From Escherichia coli (lineage in GTDB: Bacteria; Pseudomonadota; Gammaproteobacteria; Enterobacterales; Enterobacteriaceae), in assembly GCF_003334815.1 (NCBI RefSeq), contig NZ_QOWO01000026.1: a DNA stretch of 62,123 nucleotides; one strand, 5' to 3'. The notes under the pieces were generated by a model. The model saw nothing but the letters and a program-made list of their open reading frames with translations. It ran no database searches and was not told where the DNA came from. Below are positions 27,368 through 61,511 of this stretch, one piece after another (the stretch's first letter is position 1; each line of letters opens with the position of its first letter). The translations under genes and the position numbers were made by a program.

Positions 27368-27802
27368 CAGTGTTTCTCCTTTCGCCCGCCAGAGTAAAAA
27401 GCAACCGTTTACGTTAATGAAACTGTCTAAACACATGCTCGTGGAGTGCCAGTTTTTGCGAGGAAGGGGAGTTAGAGACAGGAATTGCGGAGGCAATCAC
27501 ATAATCGTGGTTAAACCACGAAAATGAGAATAGAACCTGACAATGGAATTATCTGTAATTTTCTCATATTGATATTTCATTAATCATTCTGGCATGTCGC
27601 ACTCTCGCATTTAATCGTTTTTATCTGGATAGCGCTCTTTTGATCGGCAATGTTGAAATAATGAAAGCGGCATAGATTGAGGGGCAATAATTTGAACTCA
27701 GTCGCAAAATTATAATTAAAACGGTCATGCTACCTAATATATGCCCGTTTATTGCATCGCGAAATTTGAGAAGACATAACTCATTAAATGAAAGGGATGC
27801 AA

Positions 27803-51281: not shown

Positions 51282-52472
51282 TTATTTCACGCGTTCTTGC
51301 GCTTCTTTCAGCAGTTGCTCGAGCAGTGCACCTGGTTTGGCGTATTTACGGGACAGGATCATCGCGGCGATGATATAAGGCTTCCAGCTGGCTTCTTTGT
51401 AGGTAGCGATACGGTATTTTTCGAATACGCCTTCAGTCACTTCACCTTCTTTACAGGATACGCCGCTGATATCAGCTGGCAGGCAGTGCATGTACAGGGC
51501 TTCGCCATCACGGGTCAGTTCCATCATCTCTTCAGTACAATGCCAGTCTTTGTGTTGCGCGTTCTGTGCCAGACACTGTTTTTCCAGTGCTTTTAAGCCT
51601 TCGTGATCGTTCGCACGCAGCAATTCAGTACGCTCTTCCATCACTTTGTAAGGTGCCCATGACTTCGGATAAACGATGTCTGCGTCTTTGAAGGCTTCTT
51701 CCATGCTGGTGACCTGACGGAAGCTACCACCGGAGGCTTTAGCATTGTTTTTCGCCACTTCAACCACATCCGGGATCAGGTCGTAGCCTTCCGGATGGGC
51801 CAGGGTGACATCCATACCGAAGCGAGTCATCAGACCGATGATGCCTTGTGGTACAGAGAGCGGTTTGCCATAGCTTGGAGAGTAGGCCCAGGTCATGGCG
51901 ATTTTTTTACCTTTCAGGTTTTCCAGTGAACCAAAGTGTTCACGTAACCACGCGAGGTCAGCCATTGACTGAGTCGGGTGGTCAATATCGCATTGCAGGT
52001 TCACTAAAGCCGGACGCTGTGGCAGTACACCCTGCTTGTAACCGTCATCAAGTGCAGCGCCAACTTCACGCATATAGGCGTTGCCTGCGCCCAGATACAT
52101 ATCGTCGCGAATACCAATAGCGTCGGCGCAGAAGGAGATCATATTGGCGGTTTCACGCACGGTTTCGCCGTGAGCGATTTGTGATTTGCCTTCGTCGAGA
52201 TCTTGTTGTGCAAGGCCGAGCAGGTTAAGCGCGGAAGCATAAGAGAAGCGGGTACGGGTGGAGTTGTCGCGGAATACGGAAATACCTAATCCACTATTAA
52301 AGACTTTGGTTGAGATGTTTTCAGCACGCAGTGCTTTTAATGCTGCGGCAACGTCCAGTACTTGTTTCAGTTCATCTGGCGTCTGTTCCCACGTTAACAA
52401 AAAATCTTTCTCGTGAAGGTGAGAGGTCAGCGAATTGATATCCTTAATCAGCTCATTAACAGTTTTCATCAT
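51282..52472 (-). CDS. ygeW: Carbamoyltransferase (OTC/ATC-like; oxamate/unknown-substrate transcarbamylase)
   Basis: 396 aa with the STRTR carbamoyl-phosphate binding motif and the HCLP motif. Confidence 0.88.
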   Translation of the reverse strand: MMKTVNELIKDINSLTSHLHEKDFLLTWEQTPDELKQVLDVAAALKALRAENISTKVFNSGLGISVFRDNSTRTRFSYASALNLLGLAQQDLDEGKSQIAHGETVRETANMISFCADAIGIRDDMYLGAGNAYMREVGAALDDGYKQGVLPQRPALVNLQCDIDHPTQSMADLAWLREHFGSLENLKGKKIAMTWAYSPSYGKPLSVPQGIIGLMTRFGMDVTLAHPEGYDLIPDVVEVAKNNAKASGGSFRQVTSMEEAFKDADIVYPKSWAPYKVMEERTELLRANDHEGLKALEKQCLAQNAQHKDWHCTEEMMELTRDGEALYMHCLPADISGVSCKEGEVTEGVFEKYRIATYKEASWKPYIIAAMILSRKYAKPGALLEQLLKEAQERVK

Positions 52473-52562: not shown

Positions 52563-52578
52563 AACAATAAGTGTGCCA
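52563..52578 (-). promoter_or_regulatory. Candidate sigma54 (-24/-12) promoter for the ygeW-ygeX-ygeY-hyuA-yqeA operon
   Basis: On the minus strand, cTGGCACacttaTTGTt has a perfect -24 TGGCAC, but the -12 element is TTGT rather than TTGC. It lies about 95 nt upstream of the ygeW ATG and is divergent from the sigma54 activator gene ygeV. Confidence 0.4.
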
Positions 52579-52947
52579 GAATTATCCGCGCGGCTGCAAA
52601 AGACTAATTTGACGGATAATGTGTGGGGTTGATCACAAATTGATGCCAGCTTCTGGTTGTTTGTAAAATACGAAAACGTTTGGCTTTTTTTATCGCGTTA
52701 TTTATTTGCTGCTAAGTATCAGAAATAAGATAAAGGGGCAGGCTATCTCTCTTCAGTTTGATAAACTCACCGCCGTAATTCTCATATTGATATAGAAATG
52801 TGATATCTCTTCCATAATTTCATTAGAAAATGATAAAAATCTTATGTTTTTATCAAAGCCAATTTCGCCTGAGTTAATATCATCATGATCTGTGAACCAT
52901 CAACGTCTTCAATGATCGACTTTTAAGTAAGTCTGGAAGGTAAAGCT

Positions 52948-54726
52948 ATGGAGCTTGCTACTACGCAGTCAGTATTGATGCAAATTCAACCGACAATTCA
53001 GCGTTTTGCCAGAATGCTTGCCAGCGTTTTGCAGCTTGAGGTTGAGATCGTTGATGAAAACTTGTGTCGCGTTGCCGGAACGGGCGCGTATGGGAAGTTT
53101 CTTGGTCGCCAGTTGAGCGGCAACTCACGCCTGCTCCGCCACGTCCTGGAAACGAAAACTGAAAAAGTTGTGACACAGTCTCGCTTCGATCCCCTTTGCG
53201 AAGGTTGCGATAGTAAAGAAAATTGCCGCGAAAAAGCATTTCTGGGTACGCCTGTCATTTTACAGGATCGTTGTGTTGGGGTGATAAGTTTGATTGCCGT
53301 TACCCACGAGCAACAAGAGCATATCAGTGATAATTTACGCGAATTTTCTGATTATGTTCGCCATATATCCACCATTTTTGTTTCGAAACTTCTGGAGGAT
53401 CAGGGGCCAGGAGATAACATCAGTAAAATATTTGCGACCATGATCGATAATATGGATCAGGGCGTATTAGTTGTAGATGATGAAAATCGGGTTCAGTTTG
53501 TTAATCAGACTGCCTTAAAAACACTTGGTGTTGTGCAAAATAATATTATTGGGAAACCTATCCGTTTCAGACCATTAACATTTGAGAGTAATTTTACCCA
53601 TGGACATATGCAGCATATTGTTTCATGGGACGATAAAAGTGAATTAATCATTGGTCAATTGCATAACATTCAGGGCCGACAATTATTTTTAATGGCGTTT
53701 CACCAATCGCATACCAGTTTTTCTGTAGCAAATGCACCTGATGAACCGCATATTGAACAATTGGTTGGCGAGTGCCGTGTTATGCGGCAATTAAAACGAC
53801 TCATTAGCCGTATTGCACCCAGCCCATCCAGCGTTATGGTGGTTGGTGAAAGCGGCACGGGTAAAGAAGTCGTCGCCCGTGCAATCCATAAGTTGAGCGG
53901 AAGACGGAATAAACCCTTTATTGCTATCAACTGTGCCGCGATTCCGGAGCAGCTTCTGGAGAGCGAACTGTTCGGTTATGTTAAAGGTGCATTTACTGGC
54001 GCTTCTGCCAACGGTAAAACAGGGTTGATTCAGGCGGCGAATACGGGCACGCTGTTTCTCGATGAAATAGGTGATATGCCATTAATGTTGCAGGCTAAAT
54101 TACTGCGCGCTATTGAGGCACGTGAAATTCTGCCGATTGGTGCCAGTAGCCCAATACAAGTCGACATTCGCATCATTTCTGCAACTAATCAGAATTTGGC
54201 CCAGTTCATTGCCGAAGGTAAATTCCGCGAAGATCTCTTCTACCGACTTAATGTTATCCCGATAACTCTGCCACCGCTGCGTGAACGTCAGGAAGATATT
54301 GAACTATTGGTGCATTACTTTTTACATCTGCATACCCGTCGTCTGGGATCGGTTTATCCTGGCATTGCTCCCGATGTCGTCGAAATATTGCGTAAGCATC
54401 GTTGGCCCGGAAACCTGCGCGAGTTAAGCAATTTGATGGAATATCTGGTTAACGTGGTTCCTTCAGGTGAAGTTATCGACAGCACGCTATTGCCGCCAAA
54501 TCTGCTGAATAATGGCACAACGGAGCAAAGTGATGTAACAGAGGTCAGTGAGGCGCACCTGTCACTCGATGATGCGGGCGGCACGGCGCTGGAGGAGATG
54601 GAAAAGCAAATGATCCGCGAGGCGCTTTCACGTCATAACAGCAAGAAGCAAGTTGCTGATGAACTGGGCATCGGCATTGCTACGCTCTATCGCAAGATTA
54701 AGAAATATGAGTTGTTAAACACATAA
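52948..54726 (+). CDS. ygeV: Sigma54-dependent transcriptional activator (bacterial enhancer-binding protein)
   Basis: 592 aa with the AAA+ Walker A motif GESGTGKE, the GAFTGA sigma54-contact motif and a C-terminal HTH. Confidence 0.92.
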   Translation: MELATTQSVLMQIQPTIQRFARMLASVLQLEVEIVDENLCRVAGTGAYGKFLGRQLSGNSRLLRHVLETKTEKVVTQSRFDPLCEGCDSKENCREKAFLGTPVILQDRCVGVISLIAVTHEQQEHISDNLREFSDYVRHISTIFVSKLLEDQGPGDNISKIFATMIDNMDQGVLVVDDENRVQFVNQTALKTLGVVQNNIIGKPIRFRPLTFESNFTHGHMQHIVSWDDKSELIIGQLHNIQGRQLFLMAFHQSHTSFSVANAPDEPHIEQLVGECRVMRQLKRLISRIAPSPSSVMVVGESGTGKEVVARAIHKLSGRRNKPFIAINCAAIPEQLLESELFGYVKGAFTGASANGKTGLIQAANTGTLFLDEIGDMPLMLQAKLLRAIEAREILPIGASSPIQVDIRIISATNQNLAQFIAEGKFREDLFYRLNVIPITLPPLRERQEDIELLVHYFLHLHTRRLGSVYPGIAPDVVEILRKHRWPGNLRELSNLMEYLVNVVPSGEVIDSTLLPPNLLNNGTTEQSDVTEVSEAHLSLDDAGGTALEEMEKQMIREALSRHNSKKQVADELGIGIATLYRKIKKYELLNT

Positions 54727-54765: not shown

Positions 54766-55245
54766 TTACTTCGTTTTCTCGCAATCCAGAACTGTATTTA
54801 CAATCATCTGATACCCCGTGCAGCGACAAAGATTTCCCGCCAGTCCGCGACGAATTTCCGTAATGGTTAATGGCTTCTCGCGTGGTTTCGCCAGCATTGC
54901 CGTGGTAGCCATAATCAGGCCAGGCGTACAAAACCCGCACTGCACTGCGCCGGATTTCGCATAAGCCTGCTGAACATGAGAAAGTTTTCCGCCTTTCGCT
55001 TCACCTTCCAGCGTGCGGATCTCTTTTCCTTCAGCCCAGGCGGCAAGGTATAAGCAACTGTCTATTGCTGTGCCGTCGACCAACACCGTACAGGCACCAC
55101 ATTCACCCACGCAGCACCCTTGTTTGACACTTAGCAGTCCTTGTTCGCGGAGTAATTCCGAGAGCGGCGTGCCTGGTGCGGCGTGAAGCTGAAAAGGCAT
55201 CCCGTTAATGGTGCATTCGATGGTAATTGTTTCGCTGTGATTCAT
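54766..55245 (-). CDS. xdhC: Xanthine dehydrogenase Fe-S subunit (2x 2Fe-2S)
   Basis: 159 aa carrying the CxxGxCGxC and C..C motifs. Confidence 0.9.
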
Positions 55246-56120
55246 TGCAATTTTCCCCCCGCCGCGGCGACGGCTTCGCTAATCACTTTTTTGGTCATCG
55301 TCTGGATGAGATGCAGACGAAACTCTTTACTGGCCCGCCATGAAGAACGCGGGGCGACATCTTGCAGGACAGATTCGCTGATAGCTTCCAGCGTTTGCAG
55401 GTTTAATGGCGCATTTTGTGCAGTCTGTTCGGCATGTTGGCAGCGAATCGGCGTTGGCGCGGCAACACCAAATGCCAGGCGTAATTCGCTGAAATTGCCG
55501 TTATCCAGTCGGCAATGTGCGGCGCAGCCAATCGTTGAAATATCCATTGCGTCGCGCATGGCATATTTAAAATGCGCGCTGCCCGCGTGTTCTTTCGGCT
55601 GTGGCGGAAAATGAAAGGCGACGAGGATTTCGTCATGCTCAAGAGACACTTTGCCCGGCCCGGTGTGAAAGCCATTAATCGGGACGAAACGAACACCGCG
55701 CGGGGAGTGGATCTCCAGTTTCGCGTCATAAATTAGCGTTGGCGTGGCAGAATCTGCGCTGGTGGCACCGTTGCAAATATTTCCACCGTAGGTAGCGACG
55801 TTACGGATCTGCGGTCCAGCAATGGACGTGGCCGCAGCACATAACGCCGGGAGATGACGTTGAGTTATAGGATCTTCTATTAGCTGGGTAAATGTCGTTG
55901 CAGAGCCGATACGTAGCGAGCCATCTTCCGCCAGCGTAATTCCCCGCAGCTCCGCCAGATTATGAATATCAACAATATGGCGATAACGGTCATTGTGATG
56001 GTGGAGCTGAATCAGTACGTCAGTGCCACCGGCGAGCAGTTTGGCCTGCGGGTTGTCAGCCAGCAGGTTGATGGCATCGGCAAGGGTTGCTGCGCGATGG
56101 TAAGAAGCAAAATCAAACAT
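55242..56120 (-). CDS. xdhB: Xanthine dehydrogenase FAD-binding subunit
   Basis: 292 aa with a CoxM-like fold. It overlaps the xdhC start by 4 nt. Confidence 0.9.
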
Positions 56121-56130
56121 GATGTTATCC

Positions 56131-58389
56131 TCAAATCAATCCTGCCAGATGGAACTCTTCATATAACCGTTTTGGCGTCAGCGGCAGTGTATTGATTGCA
56201 ACACCGGTAGCCATCTTCACCGCGTTACGAATAGCAGCGGCAACAGGAATTATTGGTGGCTCACCCAGTGACTTATGTCCGTATGCGGATTGCGGCTCAT
56301 TGATTTCGACGAACGCGCTTTCCAGTTGTGGCAGATCCGGCATGGTCGGCATTTTGTAATCCAGCAGATTGGGGTTACGGACCACGCCGCTTTTAGCATC
56401 GATGATCATCTCTTCAAATAGCGCCCAGCCAATGCCCATTCCCATTCCGCCGTGTACCTGACCTTCTGCCAGCAGTGGATTAAGAATATGCCCTGAATCA
56501 TGAACGTTGAGGATGCGGTTGATGGTGACTTTGCACAGCGCAATATCGACCGTCAGATCAACAAAGGTACAGCCAAACGCCGGTGGGTTAGTGGTGGTTT
56601 TGATGGAGCTTTCAGCAGAGAGCTGCCCGCCGCGTTCAGGGTGGTAGAAAGCGTCCATCGCCAAATCTTTTAACGACATTAACGGCTCTTCCGGTCGTTC
56701 AACCAGCACGATATGGCCTTTTATCAGGGTCAGATTCATCGCTGACTGATGTAGCATGACTGCGGCGTGAGCGATGATTTTCTCTTTTAATAATAGTGCC
56801 GCACTGCGCAGCGCAGGCGCGGCAACATAGCTCTGGCGTGAGGCAAATGCGCCGGGATCGAACGGCGTAACGTCGGTATCTTGAGTTGAAATAACGCGAA
56901 CGTCGCTGACCGGAACCCCCACGGTTTCTGCCACCATTTGCGAGAAGACGGTGTCGGCACCCTGACCGATTTCCGTCGCGCCGCTTTGCACGTTGATGGT
57001 TCCATCCTGATTCATCAGAAGGCGCGCGCCTGCTATTTCTACGCCGACAGGCCAGGTGTTAGAGGTGTAGCTAAAACAGGCGACGCCAACGCCGCGGCGC
57101 AAATTGCCTTGCTGGTTCTGGCATTCTGCACGGCGTTTTTCCCATTCAAAGATTTTCCGGCCTTTTTCAAGACACTCCGGCAACCCTGCGCTGTAAATAC
57201 GTTTGCCCGTGAGCGGATTAGCATCTCCTTCGCGGGCGGCGTTGCGTAAACGAATTTCAACAGGATCAATACCTAACGCTGTCGCGGCGTCATCAAGCAT
57301 AGACTCAACGGCAAATACGACTTGTGGCGCGCCATAACCACGCATCGCACCAGCCGAGGGGAGGTTGGTATAGCAGGTCTTTGAACTGTAAGCGTAGGCA
57401 CAACGAGGATAAAGGTAAGCGACTTTATTCCCCCCCGCAGAAGCGATGGAGTGCCCGTGAGATGCATAAGCGCCGGTGTTAGACAGAACATCCAGACTAT
57501 AACCTTTCAATGTTCCGTCGCGGTTCACGCCCATTTGCCCGTCAATGGTAAAAGCGTGGCGGGTACGGGTTGCGAGGAAACACTCTTCACGGCTAAGGGA
57601 AACTTTCACCGGAATGCCGCCAAGCTTGCTGGTCAGGAATGCCGCCATTGGCTCTTCCAGTACATCCTGTTTATTACCAAAACCGCCACCGACAAATGGT
57701 TTGATGACTCGTACGCATGACCAGGGAATATCCAGCGCCTGACCAACCACGCGGCGAACAATGTGCGGGATCTGGGTGCTGGAAACGATGGTAATTCGCG
57801 AGTCATCCTCCATCCACGCCAGCGATGTTACGCTTTCCATGTGACAATGTTGAATAACGGGGGTCTGATAGTGCCCCTGTACCTGGTAGTCGGCGGCATC
57901 GATTGTTTGTTGGACATTACCCGTCGACATCGTGCTTTGTTTCAGTAAATTGCCACCGTTATGGATTGGTGCAGCGTCTTCTGCCAGCGCCGCTTCTGGC
58001 GTGGTGATAACGGGTAATTCTTGCCACTCAATGCTGACCAATTGCGCCGCTTTTTCTGCCGTGAGTTCATCGCGGGCCACGACGATGGCAACGGCGTCAC
58101 CATGATGACGAACATGGCGAGTTAGCAGTGCGCGATCGGCGGTATCGCGCTTGTTTTCGTCAAGTGTCCAGGCATGCCCAGCTGTAGCGAATGGAATATC
58201 AGGCACATCTTCCCAGGTAAAAATCGCCAGTACGCCCGGCAAACTTCTGGCTTGTTCATCATTAATACTTACGGCATAACCATGTGCGATAGGGCTACGT
58301 ACATATTTCGCATAACACATGCCCGCCATAACATAATCGTCAGTATATCGTGCCCGCCCGGTGACCTTAGCAATGGCATCGACGCGCAT
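56131..58389 (-). CDS. xdhA: Xanthine dehydrogenase molybdopterin-binding subunit
   Basis: 752 aa from MRVDAIAKVTGRARYTDD. The ORF track extends it by 13 codons. Confidence 0.9.
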   Translation of the reverse strand: MRVDAIAKVTGRARYTDDYVMAGMCYAKYVRSPIAHGYAVSINDEQARSLPGVLAIFTWEDVPDIPFATAGHAWTLDENKRDTADRALLTRHVRHHGDAVAIVVARDELTAEKAAQLVSIEWQELPVITTPEAALAEDAAPIHNGGNLLKQSTMSTGNVQQTIDAADYQVQGHYQTPVIQHCHMESVTSLAWMEDDSRITIVSSTQIPHIVRRVVGQALDIPWSCVRVIKPFVGGGFGNKQDVLEEPMAAFLTSKLGGIPVKVSLSREECFLATRTRHAFTIDGQMGVNRDGTLKGYSLDVLSNTGAYASHGHSIASAGGNKVAYLYPRCAYAYSSKTCYTNLPSAGAMRGYGAPQVVFAVESMLDDAATALGIDPVEIRLRNAAREGDANPLTGKRIYSAGLPECLEKGRKIFEWEKRRAECQNQQGNLRRGVGVACFSYTSNTWPVGVEIAGARLLMNQDGTINVQSGATEIGQGADTVFSQMVAETVGVPVSDVRVISTQDTDVTPFDPGAFASRQSYVAAPALRSAALLLKEKIIAHAAVMLHQSAMNLTLIKGHIVLVERPEEPLMSLKDLAMDAFYHPERGGQLSAESSIKTTTNPPAFGCTFVDLTVDIALCKVTINRILNVHDSGHILNPLLAEGQVHGGMGMGIGWALFEEMIIDAKSGVVRNPNLLDYKMPTMPDLPQLESAFVEINEPQSAYGHKSLGEPPIIPVAAAIRNAVKMATGVAINTLPLTPKRLYEEFHLAGLI

Positions 58390-58483
58390 GCATGATTCAC
58401 CCGTAGCGGTTGCTTCCCGCGCTTCCATAGAAATCCCCTCGATTTGAACATTTGGTTCTTATGGCAAAGATTTAGTCTAAGCA

Positions 58484-58500
58484 GGCAAGATTTACGCCAG
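58484..58500 (-). promoter_or_regulatory. Candidate sigma54 (-24/-12) promoter for xdhABC
   Basis: On the minus strand, cTGGCGTaaatcTTGCc has the conserved GG and GC with the canonical spacing. It lies about 95-110 nt upstream of the xdhA ATG. Confidence 0.4.
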
Positions 58501-58842
58501 AAACGACGATAAGCGTTAGGGGAGGTAGGAAGTGTGATGACGTTAAAAAAACACAGATATGATACGAAACAGGACTCTGAATAGGGGCAGTGATACGTAT
58601 CAATATGAGTGGCGATAAAATCAATGTGATAAATTGGGATTATTACGCATCAGGATGGGAAATAGGGTAAAAAGTCAGGAAGTTCGATACCTCTACAGCG
58701 AATATTTTGCTGATGATACTTCCCTTTGCCAAATGAAATTAACCTCTTTCTCTATTACCACGTTTTTCCAGAAGCAAGAGATTGGGTATCAAGAGGCTGG
58801 CTGCTATGATAAGGCGTCTTGTTTTTTAAGCGAGGAAAGATT

Positions 58843-59598
58843 TTGAGTGCGGGACGCCTGAATAAAAAATCTCTGGGTATCGTGATGTTGTTATCGGTTG
58901 GACTGCTTTTGGCGGGCTGTTCGGGTAGCAAATCATCCGATACAGGAACGTATTCCGGCTCCGTTTACACCGTGAAACGGGGGGATACGCTATATCGTAT
59001 TTCGCGCACCACGGGAACCAGCGTAAAAGAACTGGCGCGACTGAACGGCATTTCCCCCCCTTACACCATTGAAGTTGGTCAGAAACTAAAACTGGGTGGG
59101 GCGAAAAGTAGCAGTATTACACGTAAATCAACCGCCAAATCAACGACCAAAACCGCATCGGTTACACCGTCATCAGCGGTACCGAAATCATCCTGGCCGC
59201 CAGTAGGGCAACGTTGTTGGTTATGGCCAACGACAGGGAAAGTTATCATGCCGTATTCGACAGCAGATGGCGGCAATAAAGGGATTGATATCTCAGCTCC
59301 ACGGGGTACACCTATTTACGCCGCGGGTGCAGGAAAGGTGGTGTATGTGGGCAACCAGCTGCGTGGCTACGGTAATCTCATCATGATTAAACACAGTGAA
59401 GATTACATTACGGCTTACGCCCATAATGACACGATGCTGGTAAATAATGGGCAAAGCGTGAAGGCTGGGCAAAAAATCGCCACTATGGGGAGCACGGATG
59501 CGGCATCTGTTCGCCTGCATTTCCAGATTCGTTACCGTGCAACGGCAATTGATCCGCTACGTTACTTGCCGCCTCAGGGCAGCAAGCCAAAATGCTGA
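58843..59598 (+). CDS. ygeR: LysM / M23-peptidase lipoprotein (TTG start)
   Basis: 251 aa from (L)SAGRLNKKSLGIVMLLSVGLLLAGCSG, with a lipobox, a LysM domain (YTVKRGDTLYRISR) and an M23 HxH motif. Confidence 0.85.
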   Translation: MSAGRLNKKSLGIVMLLSVGLLLAGCSGSKSSDTGTYSGSVYTVKRGDTLYRISRTTGTSVKELARLNGISPPYTIEVGQKLKLGGAKSSSITRKSTAKSTTKTASVTPSSAVPKSSWPPVGQRCWLWPTTGKVIMPYSTADGGNKGIDISAPRGTPIYAAGAGKVVYVGNQLRGYGNLIMIKHSEDYITAYAHNDTMLVNNGQSVKAGQKIATMGSTDAASVRLHFQIRYRATAIDPLRYLPPQGSKPKC

Positions 59599-59864: not shown

Positions 59865-61511
59865 ATGATTCAGCTATCCAGCAGTCACAAACTTCCAGCC
59901 GTCTCCTATCTCTACCAGCGTAACGGCGTCTACTACTTCCGTCTTCGGGTCAGACAATCAAACAATGATAGAATGACCTCAATATCATTACGGACCAAGG
60001 ATAGACGCACCGCTATGGCTCACTCAAGGCACATCAAGGCAGCACTCAAGGCAATACACGCAGACAGACCCAACGCTACCTATGAGGAAATGAGGGAGCA
60101 CCTTAAGGACATCGCTGAGTGTGAACTGTCTATGGGCCGTTCAGATCTCTTTGAGCCTGACATGAGGGATATCTACCGGGACCAATACGGAGAACTTGGT
60201 GAGAGCCTTACCGATGCTCTGGCTAGTGAGCCGCTAAGTATTGACCAGCATCGTTACATCAATGAGGCCCTGAAGGTGCTAAAAGCCTGCATGAGGCGTA
60301 TCGAAGCGGGAGACAGTCAGCCTCTGATAGATTACGTCGATCATTTTAATGATATTGATAGGCAAGATAGCCAAGTAGCCTCTGTGTCCCTATCTGTTAA
60401 TGCTCCAGAAGTAAAACCAGAAGTAAAACCAGAAGTAAAACTAGAAGTAAAACCAGAAGTTACGCCTAGCATTACCATAGCGAGCCTCTTTGAGCAATAC
60501 GAAGCGGAGAATTATCAGAACTGGAAGCCTGCAACCTTAAGGGAAAACAAGGCGTCACACGCTGCGTTAATCGAAATATTCGACCATCTGGGTCTCAATG
60601 CAGACGCTAACAGGGCTGACATGCTTAAGGTCCGTGATGTGCTCCAGCAGTTACCTAGGAACCGTAAGCAGCGCTTCAAGGATGCCCCACTTGCTGACCT
60701 GTTGAGCCGTGAAGATAAGACAGATTGTCTGGATGTCGTTACCATCAACAACAAGTATCTTATTAAGATGGCTGCTGTCTTTAGGTGGGCTGTGCGCAAT
60801 GACTTGATTAAAAAGAACATGACTGAGGGTCTGGAGCTTAAAGTCCCTCAGCGTAAAGCCTCAGGGGCCCGTAACGCCTTCTCTACGGAGCAGGTGGGGC
60901 AACTACTGGTCGCAGCTAAGGCATACTCTCAGAAGACCTCTGGTAAGCCCTACCACTATTACGTTACGGCTTTGGCTGCTATCACTGGGGCGAGACTCAA
61001 TGAAATAGCCCAACTACAGGTCAAAGACGTCAGGACCACTGAGGCGGGAACCGTTTATATTCATATCAATGAAGACGATAGTAGTCTACCCGGTAAGAGC
61101 ATCAAGAACGCTCATAGTGACCGCTGTGTGCCTCTGGTCGATGGGGCCTATGGTTTTATATTGGCTGACTTTATGAGGTTGGTTGAGACCCGTAGAGGCG
61201 CTGATGGTGATGACGCTATGGTGTTCGATGGTCTTCGCCTCATGAAGAACGGTTACGGTGAGCAGGTGAGTAAATGGTTTAATCGGACGTTGTTGCCTAA
61301 AGTCCTCGCAGATCGTAGCGGCTTAGCGTTTCACTCGTTTAGACATACAGTTGCGACCCAGTTAAAACAACATGGGGTCGAGTTGGCGTATGCACAGGCG
61401 ATCATGGGGCATAGTTCAGGGTCTATTACTTACGACCGTTATGCTAAAGAGGTTGAGGTTGATAGGCTGGTCAATGTGATGGCTGATGTTTATAAGGAGA
61501 TTGTGGGGTAA
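59865..61511 (+). CDS. Tyrosine-type integrase of a genomic island inserted next to tRNA-Gly (N-terminal arm-type domain, PEVK-repeat linker, C-terminal catalytic domain)
   Basis: 548 aa. The N-terminus (SYLYQRNGVYYFRLRV) is typical of island/phage integrase arm-binding domains. The C-terminus has R (TGARLNE), HSFRHT and Y (ITYDRYAK) catalytic motifs. It starts 115 nt after the tRNA 3' end. Confidence 0.85.
   Translation: MIQLSSSHKLPAVSYLYQRNGVYYFRLRVRQSNNDRMTSISLRTKDRRTAMAHSRHIKAALKAIHADRPNATYEEMREHLKDIAECELSMGRSDLFEPDMRDIYRDQYGELGESLTDALASEPLSIDQHRYINEALKVLKACMRRIEAGDSQPLIDYVDHFNDIDRQDSQVASVSLSVNAPEVKPEVKPEVKLEVKPEVTPSITIASLFEQYEAENYQNWKPATLRENKASHAALIEIFDHLGLNADANRADMLKVRDVLQQLPRNRKQRFKDAPLADLLSREDKTDCLDVVTINNKYLIKMAAVFRWAVRNDLIKKNMTEGLELKVPQRKASGARNAFSTEQVGQLLVAAKAYSQKTSGKPYHYYVTALAAITGARLNEIAQLQVKDVRTTEAGTVYIHINEDDSSLPGKSIKNAHSDRCVPLVDGAYGFILADFMRLVETRRGADGDDAMVFDGLRLMKNGYGEQVSKWFNRTLLPKVLADRSGLAFHSFRHTVATQLKQHGVELAYAQAIMGHSSGSITYDRYAKEVEVDRLVNVMADVYKEIVG
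60405..60461 (+). repeat. Intragenic 12-bp tandem repeat (ccagaagtaaaa, about 4.75 copies) encoding (PEVK)n in the integrase
   Basis: ccagaagtaaaaccagaagtaaaaccagaagtaaaactagaagtaaaaccagaagtt. Confidence 0.9.

Follow-up and report, generated by a model that had tools for sequence, protein, structure and literature searches.

In a stretch of 62,123 nucleotides from Escherichia coli (assembly GCF_003334815.1, contig NZ_QOWO01000026.1; hereafter the window, meaning this whole stretch of DNA), the 17-nt element on the minus strand at 58500-58484 is very probably the functional promoter from which RNA polymerase carrying sigma-54 (RpoN) transcribes the xdhABC operon. That this operon has a sigma-54 promoter is already known from EcoCyc and two genome-scale sigma-54 studies. 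The new part here is a modest addition, namely a conserved pair of dyads upstream of the promoter and a palindrome common to the promoters of neighboring operons, which, judging from the sequence, may be the binding site of YgeV, a sigma-54 enhancer-binding protein encoded next to xdhC and the presumed activator. The features that define the promoter are as follows.

58484-58500, minus strand: sigma-54 -24/-12 promoter element CTGGCGTAAATCTTGCC of xdhABC (matrix score, chromatin immunoprecipitation sequencing (ChIP-seq) identity, conservation)
58473, minus strand: predicted xdhA transcription start, 12 nt past the -12 C and 19 nt past the motif centre at 58492
58426-58440, minus strand: Shine-Dalgarno sequence GAGGGG (58440-58435) and xdhA ATG (58428-58426), from the open reading frame (ORF), Prokaryotic Genome Annotation Pipeline (PGAP) calls in other strains and cross-genus conservation
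54766-58428, minus strand: xdhABC operon, driven by the xdhA promoter (ORFs and annotation)

Bonocora et al. 2015 report this same 17-mer as their ChIP-seq site OS29 (b2866 xdhA; fold-above-threshold 11; 84 nt to the K-12 start), where it is flagged as experimentally confirmed in EcoCyc, and the same table holds ygeW (OS30, CTGGCACACTTATTGTT), ygfK (OS31, GTGGTGCGATTGTTGCT) and ygfT (OS32, TATGCCCGTTTATTGCA) (PMC4591121). Window coordinates give exactly the start-to-gene distances listed there, i.e., 84, 80, 62 and 36 nt for xdhA, ygeW, ygfK and ygfT, respectively. Zhao et al. 2010 gave the xdhA promoter as tttcTGGCGTAAATCTTGCCTGctta and reported, by microarray, that xdhA was up 4.9-fold on sigma-54 induction and down 2.1-fold in an rpoN deletion (PMC2831329); xdhA and ygfK are among only 5 of their 22 candidates that are backed by the data of Bonocora et al. 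(PMC4591121). The PRECISE-1K paper credits Reitzer & Schneider 2001 with identifying the sigma-54 promoters of both xdhABC and ygeWXY, and PRECISE-1K assigns xdhABC to the YgeV iModulon, which is almost always inactive. Because the ChIP-seq sites, the two promoters and the iModulon are all published, the sequence-only reading of this DNA, which had proposed a sigma-54 promoter here within a YgeV regulon, restates known work both in its observation and in its interpretation. The element is the same object as xdhAp of E. coli K-12, with identical 17-mer, orientation and distance to xdhA; the promoter itself does not differ, whereas the window appears to be non-K-12, with an integrase adjoining glyU, and its PGAP start of xdhA lies 13 codons upstream.

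On the minus strand the element reads C(58500)TGGCGTAAATCTTGC(58485)C(58484), with the GG at 58498-58497 and the GC at 58486-58485. Written as TGGCGT-AAATC-TTGCC (58499-58484) it is TGGC-N7-TTGC, which corresponds to the canonical TGGCAC-N5-TTGC, and its two doublets are one helical turn apart, as is expected of a sigma-54 promoter. The sequence-only reading had described a good match at the canonical spacing, TGGC-N8-TTGC. The spacing is canonical, but the count is not, since a search for TGGC-N8-TTGC gave no match at the xdhA site and the pattern search returns N7. The -24/-12 match likewise stands, but at moderate strength, with three mismatches to TGGCACNNNNNTTGCW (GT for AC, and C for W), which is why the site is absent from a search allowing at most two mismatches. 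The matrix scan that the reading had proposed was run with a sigma-54 matrix built from 38 published intergenic sites (Table 1, PMC4591121), the four sites of this region being left out. It placed the ygeW site first and the xdhA site, at 11.96 bits, fifth of 124,214 window positions, a score that is not significant window-wide: approximately 3.5 equal or better matches are expected in shuffles, and the bare TGGC-N7-TTGC pattern occurs twice against 3.75 expected. The xdhA site is therefore, by its letters alone, not beyond chance, and the case that it is real comes from its position and orientation, its conservation across genera and the published ChIP-seq. Three of the six top matrix matches are intergenic, and each faces the leading gene of a purine-cluster operon (ygeW, xdhA and ygfK). 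Other strong matches to the matrix are CTGTCGCGATTTTTGCA at 7867-7883 (plus strand; 15.1 bits), which has GT instead of GG at -24, and CTGGCACAGGCACTGCG at 3479-3495 (plus strand; 13.0 bits).

With regard to position, the element is intergenic, points at xdhA and lies at a plausible distance from it. It is 57-72 nt upstream of the PGAP start (ATG 58428); counted from the K-12 start at 58389 the distance is 96-111 nt, which the figure of about 100 nt in the earlier reading fits. The predicted transcription start, placed by the convention of PMC4591121, reproduces the listed 84 nt to the K-12 start 58389 and leaves a leader of about 45 nt before ATG 58428. K-12 xdhA is annotated with 752 aa, starting 13 codons after the 765-aa PGAP start; the conservation of GAGGGG and ATG 58428 across genera suggests that the K-12 gene is probably annotated too short.

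Conservation was followed in 47 xdhA loci, one genome per species, with the 500 nt upstream of xdhA scanned. The enterobacterial loci come from Escherichia, Shigella, Citrobacter, Pseudocitrobacter, Kluyvera, Atlantibacter, Trabulsiella, Buttiauxella, Hafnia, Enterobacillus, Klebsiella, Yokenella and Pluralibacter. In each of these the top matrix match was the homologous element, lying 56-102 nt ahead of the ATG, and TGGCG-N6-TTGC was retained across about 12 genera in all enterobacterial loci but one, a frameshifted Shigella assembly with CTGC. The spacer of the element varies (AAATC, AATTC, AATTA, AAATT, ACTTC, GCATC and others), and distant genera carry a better -12 element, TTGCT, with scores of 15-16 bits. 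In a 23-species alignment the xdhA spacer is essentially unalignable outside the promoter and a few conserved islands, and GG and GC blocks that are kept while the spacer between them varies and the flanks cannot be aligned are the signature of a functional -24/-12 promoter. Within the species, 601 nt around the promoter are present at at least 95% identity in 5,412 of 5,426 complete E. coli genomes.

The first of the conserved islands upstream of the promoter reads TATCAyAATGAk-N10-cTCATwwTGATA. It holds two dyads, each an 11-bp palindrome of the form (A/C)TCA-N3-TGA(T/G), which together span 58631-58598 and whose centres are 21 bp apart, placing them on the same face of the helix.

58620-58631, minus strand: distal candidate dyad TATCACATTGAT, a palindrome (ATCA-CAT-TGAT) centred on 58625, near -152 relative to the predicted start (conserved island; 16.3 bits)
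58598-58609, plus strand: proximal candidate dyad TATCAATATGAG (minus strand CTCATATTGATA), centre 58604, about -131 (conserved island, dyad matrix)

The sequence-only reading had expected upstream activator sites for YgeV within 58520-58800, and the pair falls inside that interval as a conserved candidate to which YgeV would bind. It had also suggested a look for inverted repeats common to xdhA, ygeW and ygfK; the check bore this out, as the dyad is present and conserved across genera upstream of all three. For this search a 12-mer dyad matrix was trained on the arms of the xdhA orthologues only and run over the whole window (approximately 124,000 positions). Its eight best matches all lie in the four spacers with a sigma-54 ChIP site (xdhA, ygeW, ygfK and ygfT/uacT), and six of the nine matches of at least 14 bits are in the three spacers other than that of xdhA, which make up 2% of the window and would be expected to hold 0.18. 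The exact 12-mer TATCAATATGAG has three copies in the window, upstream of xdhA, of ygeW (52781-52792) and of ygfT/uacT (27563-27574), and dinucleotide shuffles give p values of about 0.001-0.002 per spacer for the dyad. As a control, 26 kb of K-12 DNA surrounding ybiYW and aegA were scanned and contained no dyad match of at least 10 bits; ybiYW (a member of the YgeV iModulon) and aegA (urate pathway) were accordingly dropped as candidate direct targets. The sites at the neighboring operons are the following.

52563-52579, minus strand: ygeW sigma-54 promoter CTGGCACACTTATTGTT (16.07 bits, top match in the window; ChIP-seq OS30; RpoN peak in the ygeV/ygeW spacer by genomic systematic evolution of ligands by exponential enrichment (gSELEX))
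52752-52792, minus strand: ygeW dyad-family sites TATCAATATGAG (52792-52781) and TATCAAACTGAA (52763-52752) (dyad matrix, alignment)
52878-52889, plus strand: further dyad-family site TATCATCATGAT (dyad matrix)
42747-42763, minus strand: ygfK sigma-54 promoter GTGGTGCGATTGTTGCT (11.96 bits; ChIP-seq OS31; conserved in metagenome orthologues)
42932-42944, no strand assigned: perfect 13-bp palindrome TATCATAATGATA, 183 bp upstream of the ygfK promoter centre (19.6 bits, top dyad-matrix match in the window)
27740-27756, plus strand: ygfT sigma-54 site TATGCCCGTTTATTGCA (ChIP-seq OS32; 7.2 bits)
27563-27574, minus strand: copy of the dyad TATCAATATGAG between ygfT and uacT, 180 bp upstream of TATGCCCGTTTATTGCA (dyad matrix, exact 12-mer)

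A second site of the form TGGCAC-N5-TTGT had been noted upstream of ygeW, and CTGGCACACTTATTGTT confirms it as the top matrix match of the window. In 19 species its TGGCA and TATTGTT are invariant, with three varying bases in between, and the upstream block ATATCAATATGAGAAT-N11-TTTATCAAnnTGA is conserved in the same number of species. For ygfK, 80 metagenome loci yielded 41 distinct upstream sequences, of which 34 have both the sigma-54 element and the 13-bp palindrome TATCA-NNN-TGATA, six have neither, and one has the element together with a variant dyad, TATCACTTTGAG, that falls outside the co-occurrence search pattern. The arms of the ygfK dyad are invariant and its central triplet is variable (nine variants); its distances to the promoter cluster at 141/144, 162-166, 182-185 and 195 bp, steps of about 21 bp that suggest helical phasing. 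Between the ygfK palindrome and a CRP-like site, at 42850-42925 (minus strand), there is also a conserved inverted repeat, TTTTGAGAA ... TTCTCATTT, whose TGAGAA half extends the ygeW dyad as well (TATCAATATGAGAAT).

About 70 nt upstream of uacT lies CTGGCACTCCACGAGCA (27436-27452, minus strand), which scores 7.4 bits (the ygfT site has 7.2) and is 124 bp from the dyad at 27563-27574; it is not in Table 1 of Bonocora et al. (PMC4591121) and may be a divergent sigma-54 promoter of uacT that uses the same dyad as ygfT. Near the start of ygeV (52825-52857, minus strand, and 52873-52889) there are an inverted repeat, TTGATAAAAA-N10-TTTATCA, and the sequence aTGATAcTAAC / TATCATCATGAT, 59-70 nt upstream of the ygeV ATG, and these conserved elements may be autoregulatory sites.

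YgeV itself has the make-up of a complete enhancer-binding protein. A Pfam search found PAS (162-205), Sigma54_activat (PF00158, E = 7.8e-71; 272-439), AAA_lid_14 and the Fis-type helix-turn-helix domain HTH_8 (548-587), with no receiver domain and no match in residues 1-160, and the protein carries Walker A GESGTGK at 300, GAFTGA at 347 and DEI at 372. As the sequence-only reading had placed it, the gene (52948-54726, plus strand) is close to xdhABC, directly after xdhC; it is the sole regulator gene in the cluster, and in most genera its synteny with xdhABC and ygeW is retained. The gene is also called uacR, and an indole-signalling study renamed it isrR. According to the PRECISE-1K paper, a ygeV mutant had lower ygfT expression, and Iwadate & Kato 2019, as cited by a later paper, reported that formate-dependent use of urate under anaerobic conditions requires ygeV.

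In the proposed mechanism, RNA polymerase-sigma-54 binds the GG at -24 and the GC at -12 as a closed complex, as published ChIP-seq shows, and transcription would begin near 58473. Opening of the complex would require an AAA+ enhancer-binding protein, for which YgeV is the likeliest candidate in view of its linkage, co-expression and intact domains. YgeV would bind both 11-bp dyads on their common helix face and might reach the polymerase by DNA looping over a T-tract/TCACA element at about -62, which may in turn bind an architectural or co-regulatory protein. We lean towards these YgeV-dyad steps by a small measure only, guided by conservation footprinting and by the motif that the promoters have in common. 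A similarly slight preference attaches to the wider proposal that the palindrome TATCA-N3-TGA(T/G)A is the YgeV operator, with a direct regulon of xdhABC, ygeWXY-hyuA-yqeA, ygfK-ssnA-ygfM-xdhD..., ygfT(S) and, through the shared divergent site, probably uacT; the same dyad at ygeW, ygfK and ygfT would then make the purine/urate cluster one regulon. That the xanthine/urate supercluster is a sigma-54/YgeV regulon, as had been proposed from the sequence, is thus supported, mostly by published data (ChIP-seq at xdhA, ygeW, ygfK and ygfT, and the YgeV iModulon), with YgeV the probable activator at xdhA.

Known systems offer parallels. The FhlA-dependent hyc/hyp/fdhF and NorR-dependent norVW promoters likewise combine an anaerobic operon, a -24/-12 promoter, a dedicated enhancer-binding protein encoded in the cluster, to which YgeV would correspond here, and short dyads more than 100 bp upstream to which that protein binds. 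NorR sites are 11-bp GT-N7-AC dyads in multiple copies. Unlike FhlA and NorR, YgeV has a PAS rather than a GAF domain, in addition to an N-terminal region that lacks a Pfam match before residue 162. The NtrC-activated promoter glnAp2 also has tandem activator sites on the same face upstream of a -24/-12 promoter, with looping and possible CRP modulation; unlike YgeV, which has no receiver domain, NtrC is a phosphorylated response regulator, and its sites are TGCACC-N5-GGTGCA. To our knowledge, TATCA-N3-TGA(T/G)A matches no known operator.

Several observations weigh against the reading of the element as a working promoter with YgeV as its activator. The consensus match is only moderate (TGGCGT, TTGCC; 12 bits) and of a kind expected more than once per window, a mapped start site for xdhA was not found in the searchable literature, and an RpoN gSELEX study has a peak in the ygeV/ygeW spacer and does not list xdhA. 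Most sites of the Zhao microarray study were false positives according to Bonocora et al. (PMC4591121). On the side of the activator, the dyad is short and AT-rich, its specificity was tested across about 137 kb of E. coli DNA, the searchable literature holds no description of a YgeV operator and no YgeV-xdhA or YgeV-DNA experiment that we could find, and a massively parallel reporter study of 2026 saw no consistent footprints at promoters of the YgeV iModulon. Kluyvera, Hafnia and Enterobacillus, furthermore, keep the promoter and the dyads, and no ygeV was found within 10 kb. In Kluyvera there is neither ygeV nor ygeW, with the xdhA sigma-54 promoter and dyads kept, and directly after xdhABC come ORFs of 259, 956, 483, 438 and 455 aa, which by size and order only (one ORF has a weak UacT-family match) fit ygfM-xdhD, a xanQ-like transporter, guaD and ghxQ.

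How far these points carry depends on what is put in the place of the preferred reading. That the element fits a degenerate consensus by coincidence and has no function deserves practically no credence: its score and pattern count would allow it, but sigma-54 occupies this exact 17-mer in vivo (PMC4591121), and the GG and GC are invariant across genera whose flanks cannot be aligned, so that conservation and ChIP together already refute it. It is also very unlikely that polymerase-sigma-54 occupies the site while xdhABC is expressed mainly from another promoter, or hardly at all. Bonocora et al. write of a 'binding site' on purpose, since transcription may never start from many of the 135 they mapped (PMC4591121), the effect of the rpoN deletion on xdhA is small (PMC2831329), and a mostly inactive iModulon and the reporter study fit such silence. 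Against this, the xdhA site lies between genes, faces xdhA and keeps a constant distance to it in about 12 genera, with a dyad pair and a position-locked TCACA box upstream, and a conserved site combined with such upstream elements is the architecture of an activator-dependent promoter. A scan of the actS-xdhA spacer gave neither a sigma-70-like promoter that could compete nor a terminator above chance, and the rise of xdhA came five minutes after sigma-54 was induced (PMC2831329).

A promoter that is real but served by an activator other than YgeV, or dyads that are bound by another regulator (a repressor, Fur at the ygfK palindrome, or an unlinked enhancer-binding protein such as NtrC), is rather unlikely. 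In its favor, the searchable literature gave no direct YgeV-DNA data, and three genera keep promoter and dyads with no linked ygeV found. The ygfK palindrome shares AATGATAA with the Fur box, which it resembles. CRP sites have been mapped in neighboring spacers, and there is an NtrC gSELEX peak inside xdhB/xdhC, but the latter lies away from the xdhA promoter. YgeV, for its part, is encoded by the only regulator gene of a cluster that is syntenic in most genera, its Fis-type helix-turn-helix suits dyads, and a ygeV mutant is reported to have lower ygfT expression and impaired anaerobic urate use. The dyad, moreover, strictly co-occurs with sigma-54 sites, at activator-like distances and with helical phasing. 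The preferred reading remains a sigma-54 promoter of xdhABC for which YgeV, acting from the dyads, is the favored activator.

The second conserved island lies between the dyads and the promoter.

58528-58551, minus strand: middle element TTTTTTTAACGTCATCACACTTCC, a T-tract and a TCACA box (conserved in the 23-species alignment)

The TCACA box, at 58537-58533, precedes the promoter centre by 43-44 bp in 38 of 40 xdhA loci, and most ygfK promoters have it equally far upstream; its ygeW counterpart, CCACA, is at 53 bp, one helical turn further, and supplies the right-hand part of a CRP-like TGTGA-N6-CCACA. The candidates for the middle element are a CRP-like half-site, an IHF site or a proximal YgeV half-site. 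The IHF assignment was rejected, as the consensus WATCAANNNNTTR is not matched in E. coli and only inconsistently in the orthologues. Of a possible CRP site, the A-N6-TCACA half alone is conserved, and the CRP gSELEX lists, which name ygfK and the divergent spacers ygeV/ygeW and ygfT/ygfU, do not include xdhA. CRP-like sites TGTGATCAACCCCACA (ygeW, 52622-52637, minus strand) and TGTGAGTTCATTCACA (ygfK, 42826-42841, minus strand) are conserved upstream of the sigma-54 promoters, in agreement with CRP gSELEX and with a 'native Crp-binding site' (PMC12507026). A block AGCCAAACGTTTTCGT (52670-52685, minus strand), located after the dyads and before the sigma-54 promoter of ygeW, is conserved in most of the 19 species. 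It resembles the PurR operator, ACGCAAACGTTTTCGT, and may tie the catabolic genes to repression by purines.

The window is E. coli chromosome, oriented as the reverse complement of K-12. By annotated matches, actS (ygeR) is divergent from xdhA-xdhB-xdhC across a spacer of 417 bp, ygeV is convergent with xdhC, and ygeV is divergent from ygeW-ygeX(dpaL)-ygeY.

56131-58428, minus strand: xdhA (ORF and annotation)
55242-56120, minus strand: xdhB (ORF and annotation)
54766-55245, minus strand: xdhC (ORF and annotation)
52948-54726, plus strand: ygeV, sigma-54 enhancer-binding protein, presumed activator (Pfam and motifs)
51282-52472, minus strand: ygeW (ORF and annotation)
near 58846, plus strand: start of actS

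Past actS there is a 548-aa ORF (59865-61511, plus strand), at the position where strain E2865 has a site-specific integrase adjoining the tRNA-Gly gene glyU; the window therefore appears to be non-K-12, with an island integrated at glyU. Some E. coli strains (e.g. APEC-O117H42) carry a copy of IS1 between actS and xdhA whose nearer end is about 340 bp upstream of the xdhA ATG, a distance inferred from the annotated transposase position and not from sequence. Such insertions lie upstream of the dyads, so that the promoter region is probably undisturbed.

The genes of this cluster degrade urate and purines anaerobically in gut bacteria and work is under way to engineer them in probiotic E. coli for lowering urate; its authors regard the regulation of the cluster genes as poorly understood. 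The promoter itself adds nothing new. If the proposed regulon is true, sigma-54 promoters would integrate urate/purine induction with catabolite control and purine repression, through the TCACA box at xdhA and ygfK and the CRP- and PurR-like sites at ygeW, and a testable candidate YgeV operator within a fixed promoter architecture would help to find the inducing signal and to de-repress the pathway rationally.

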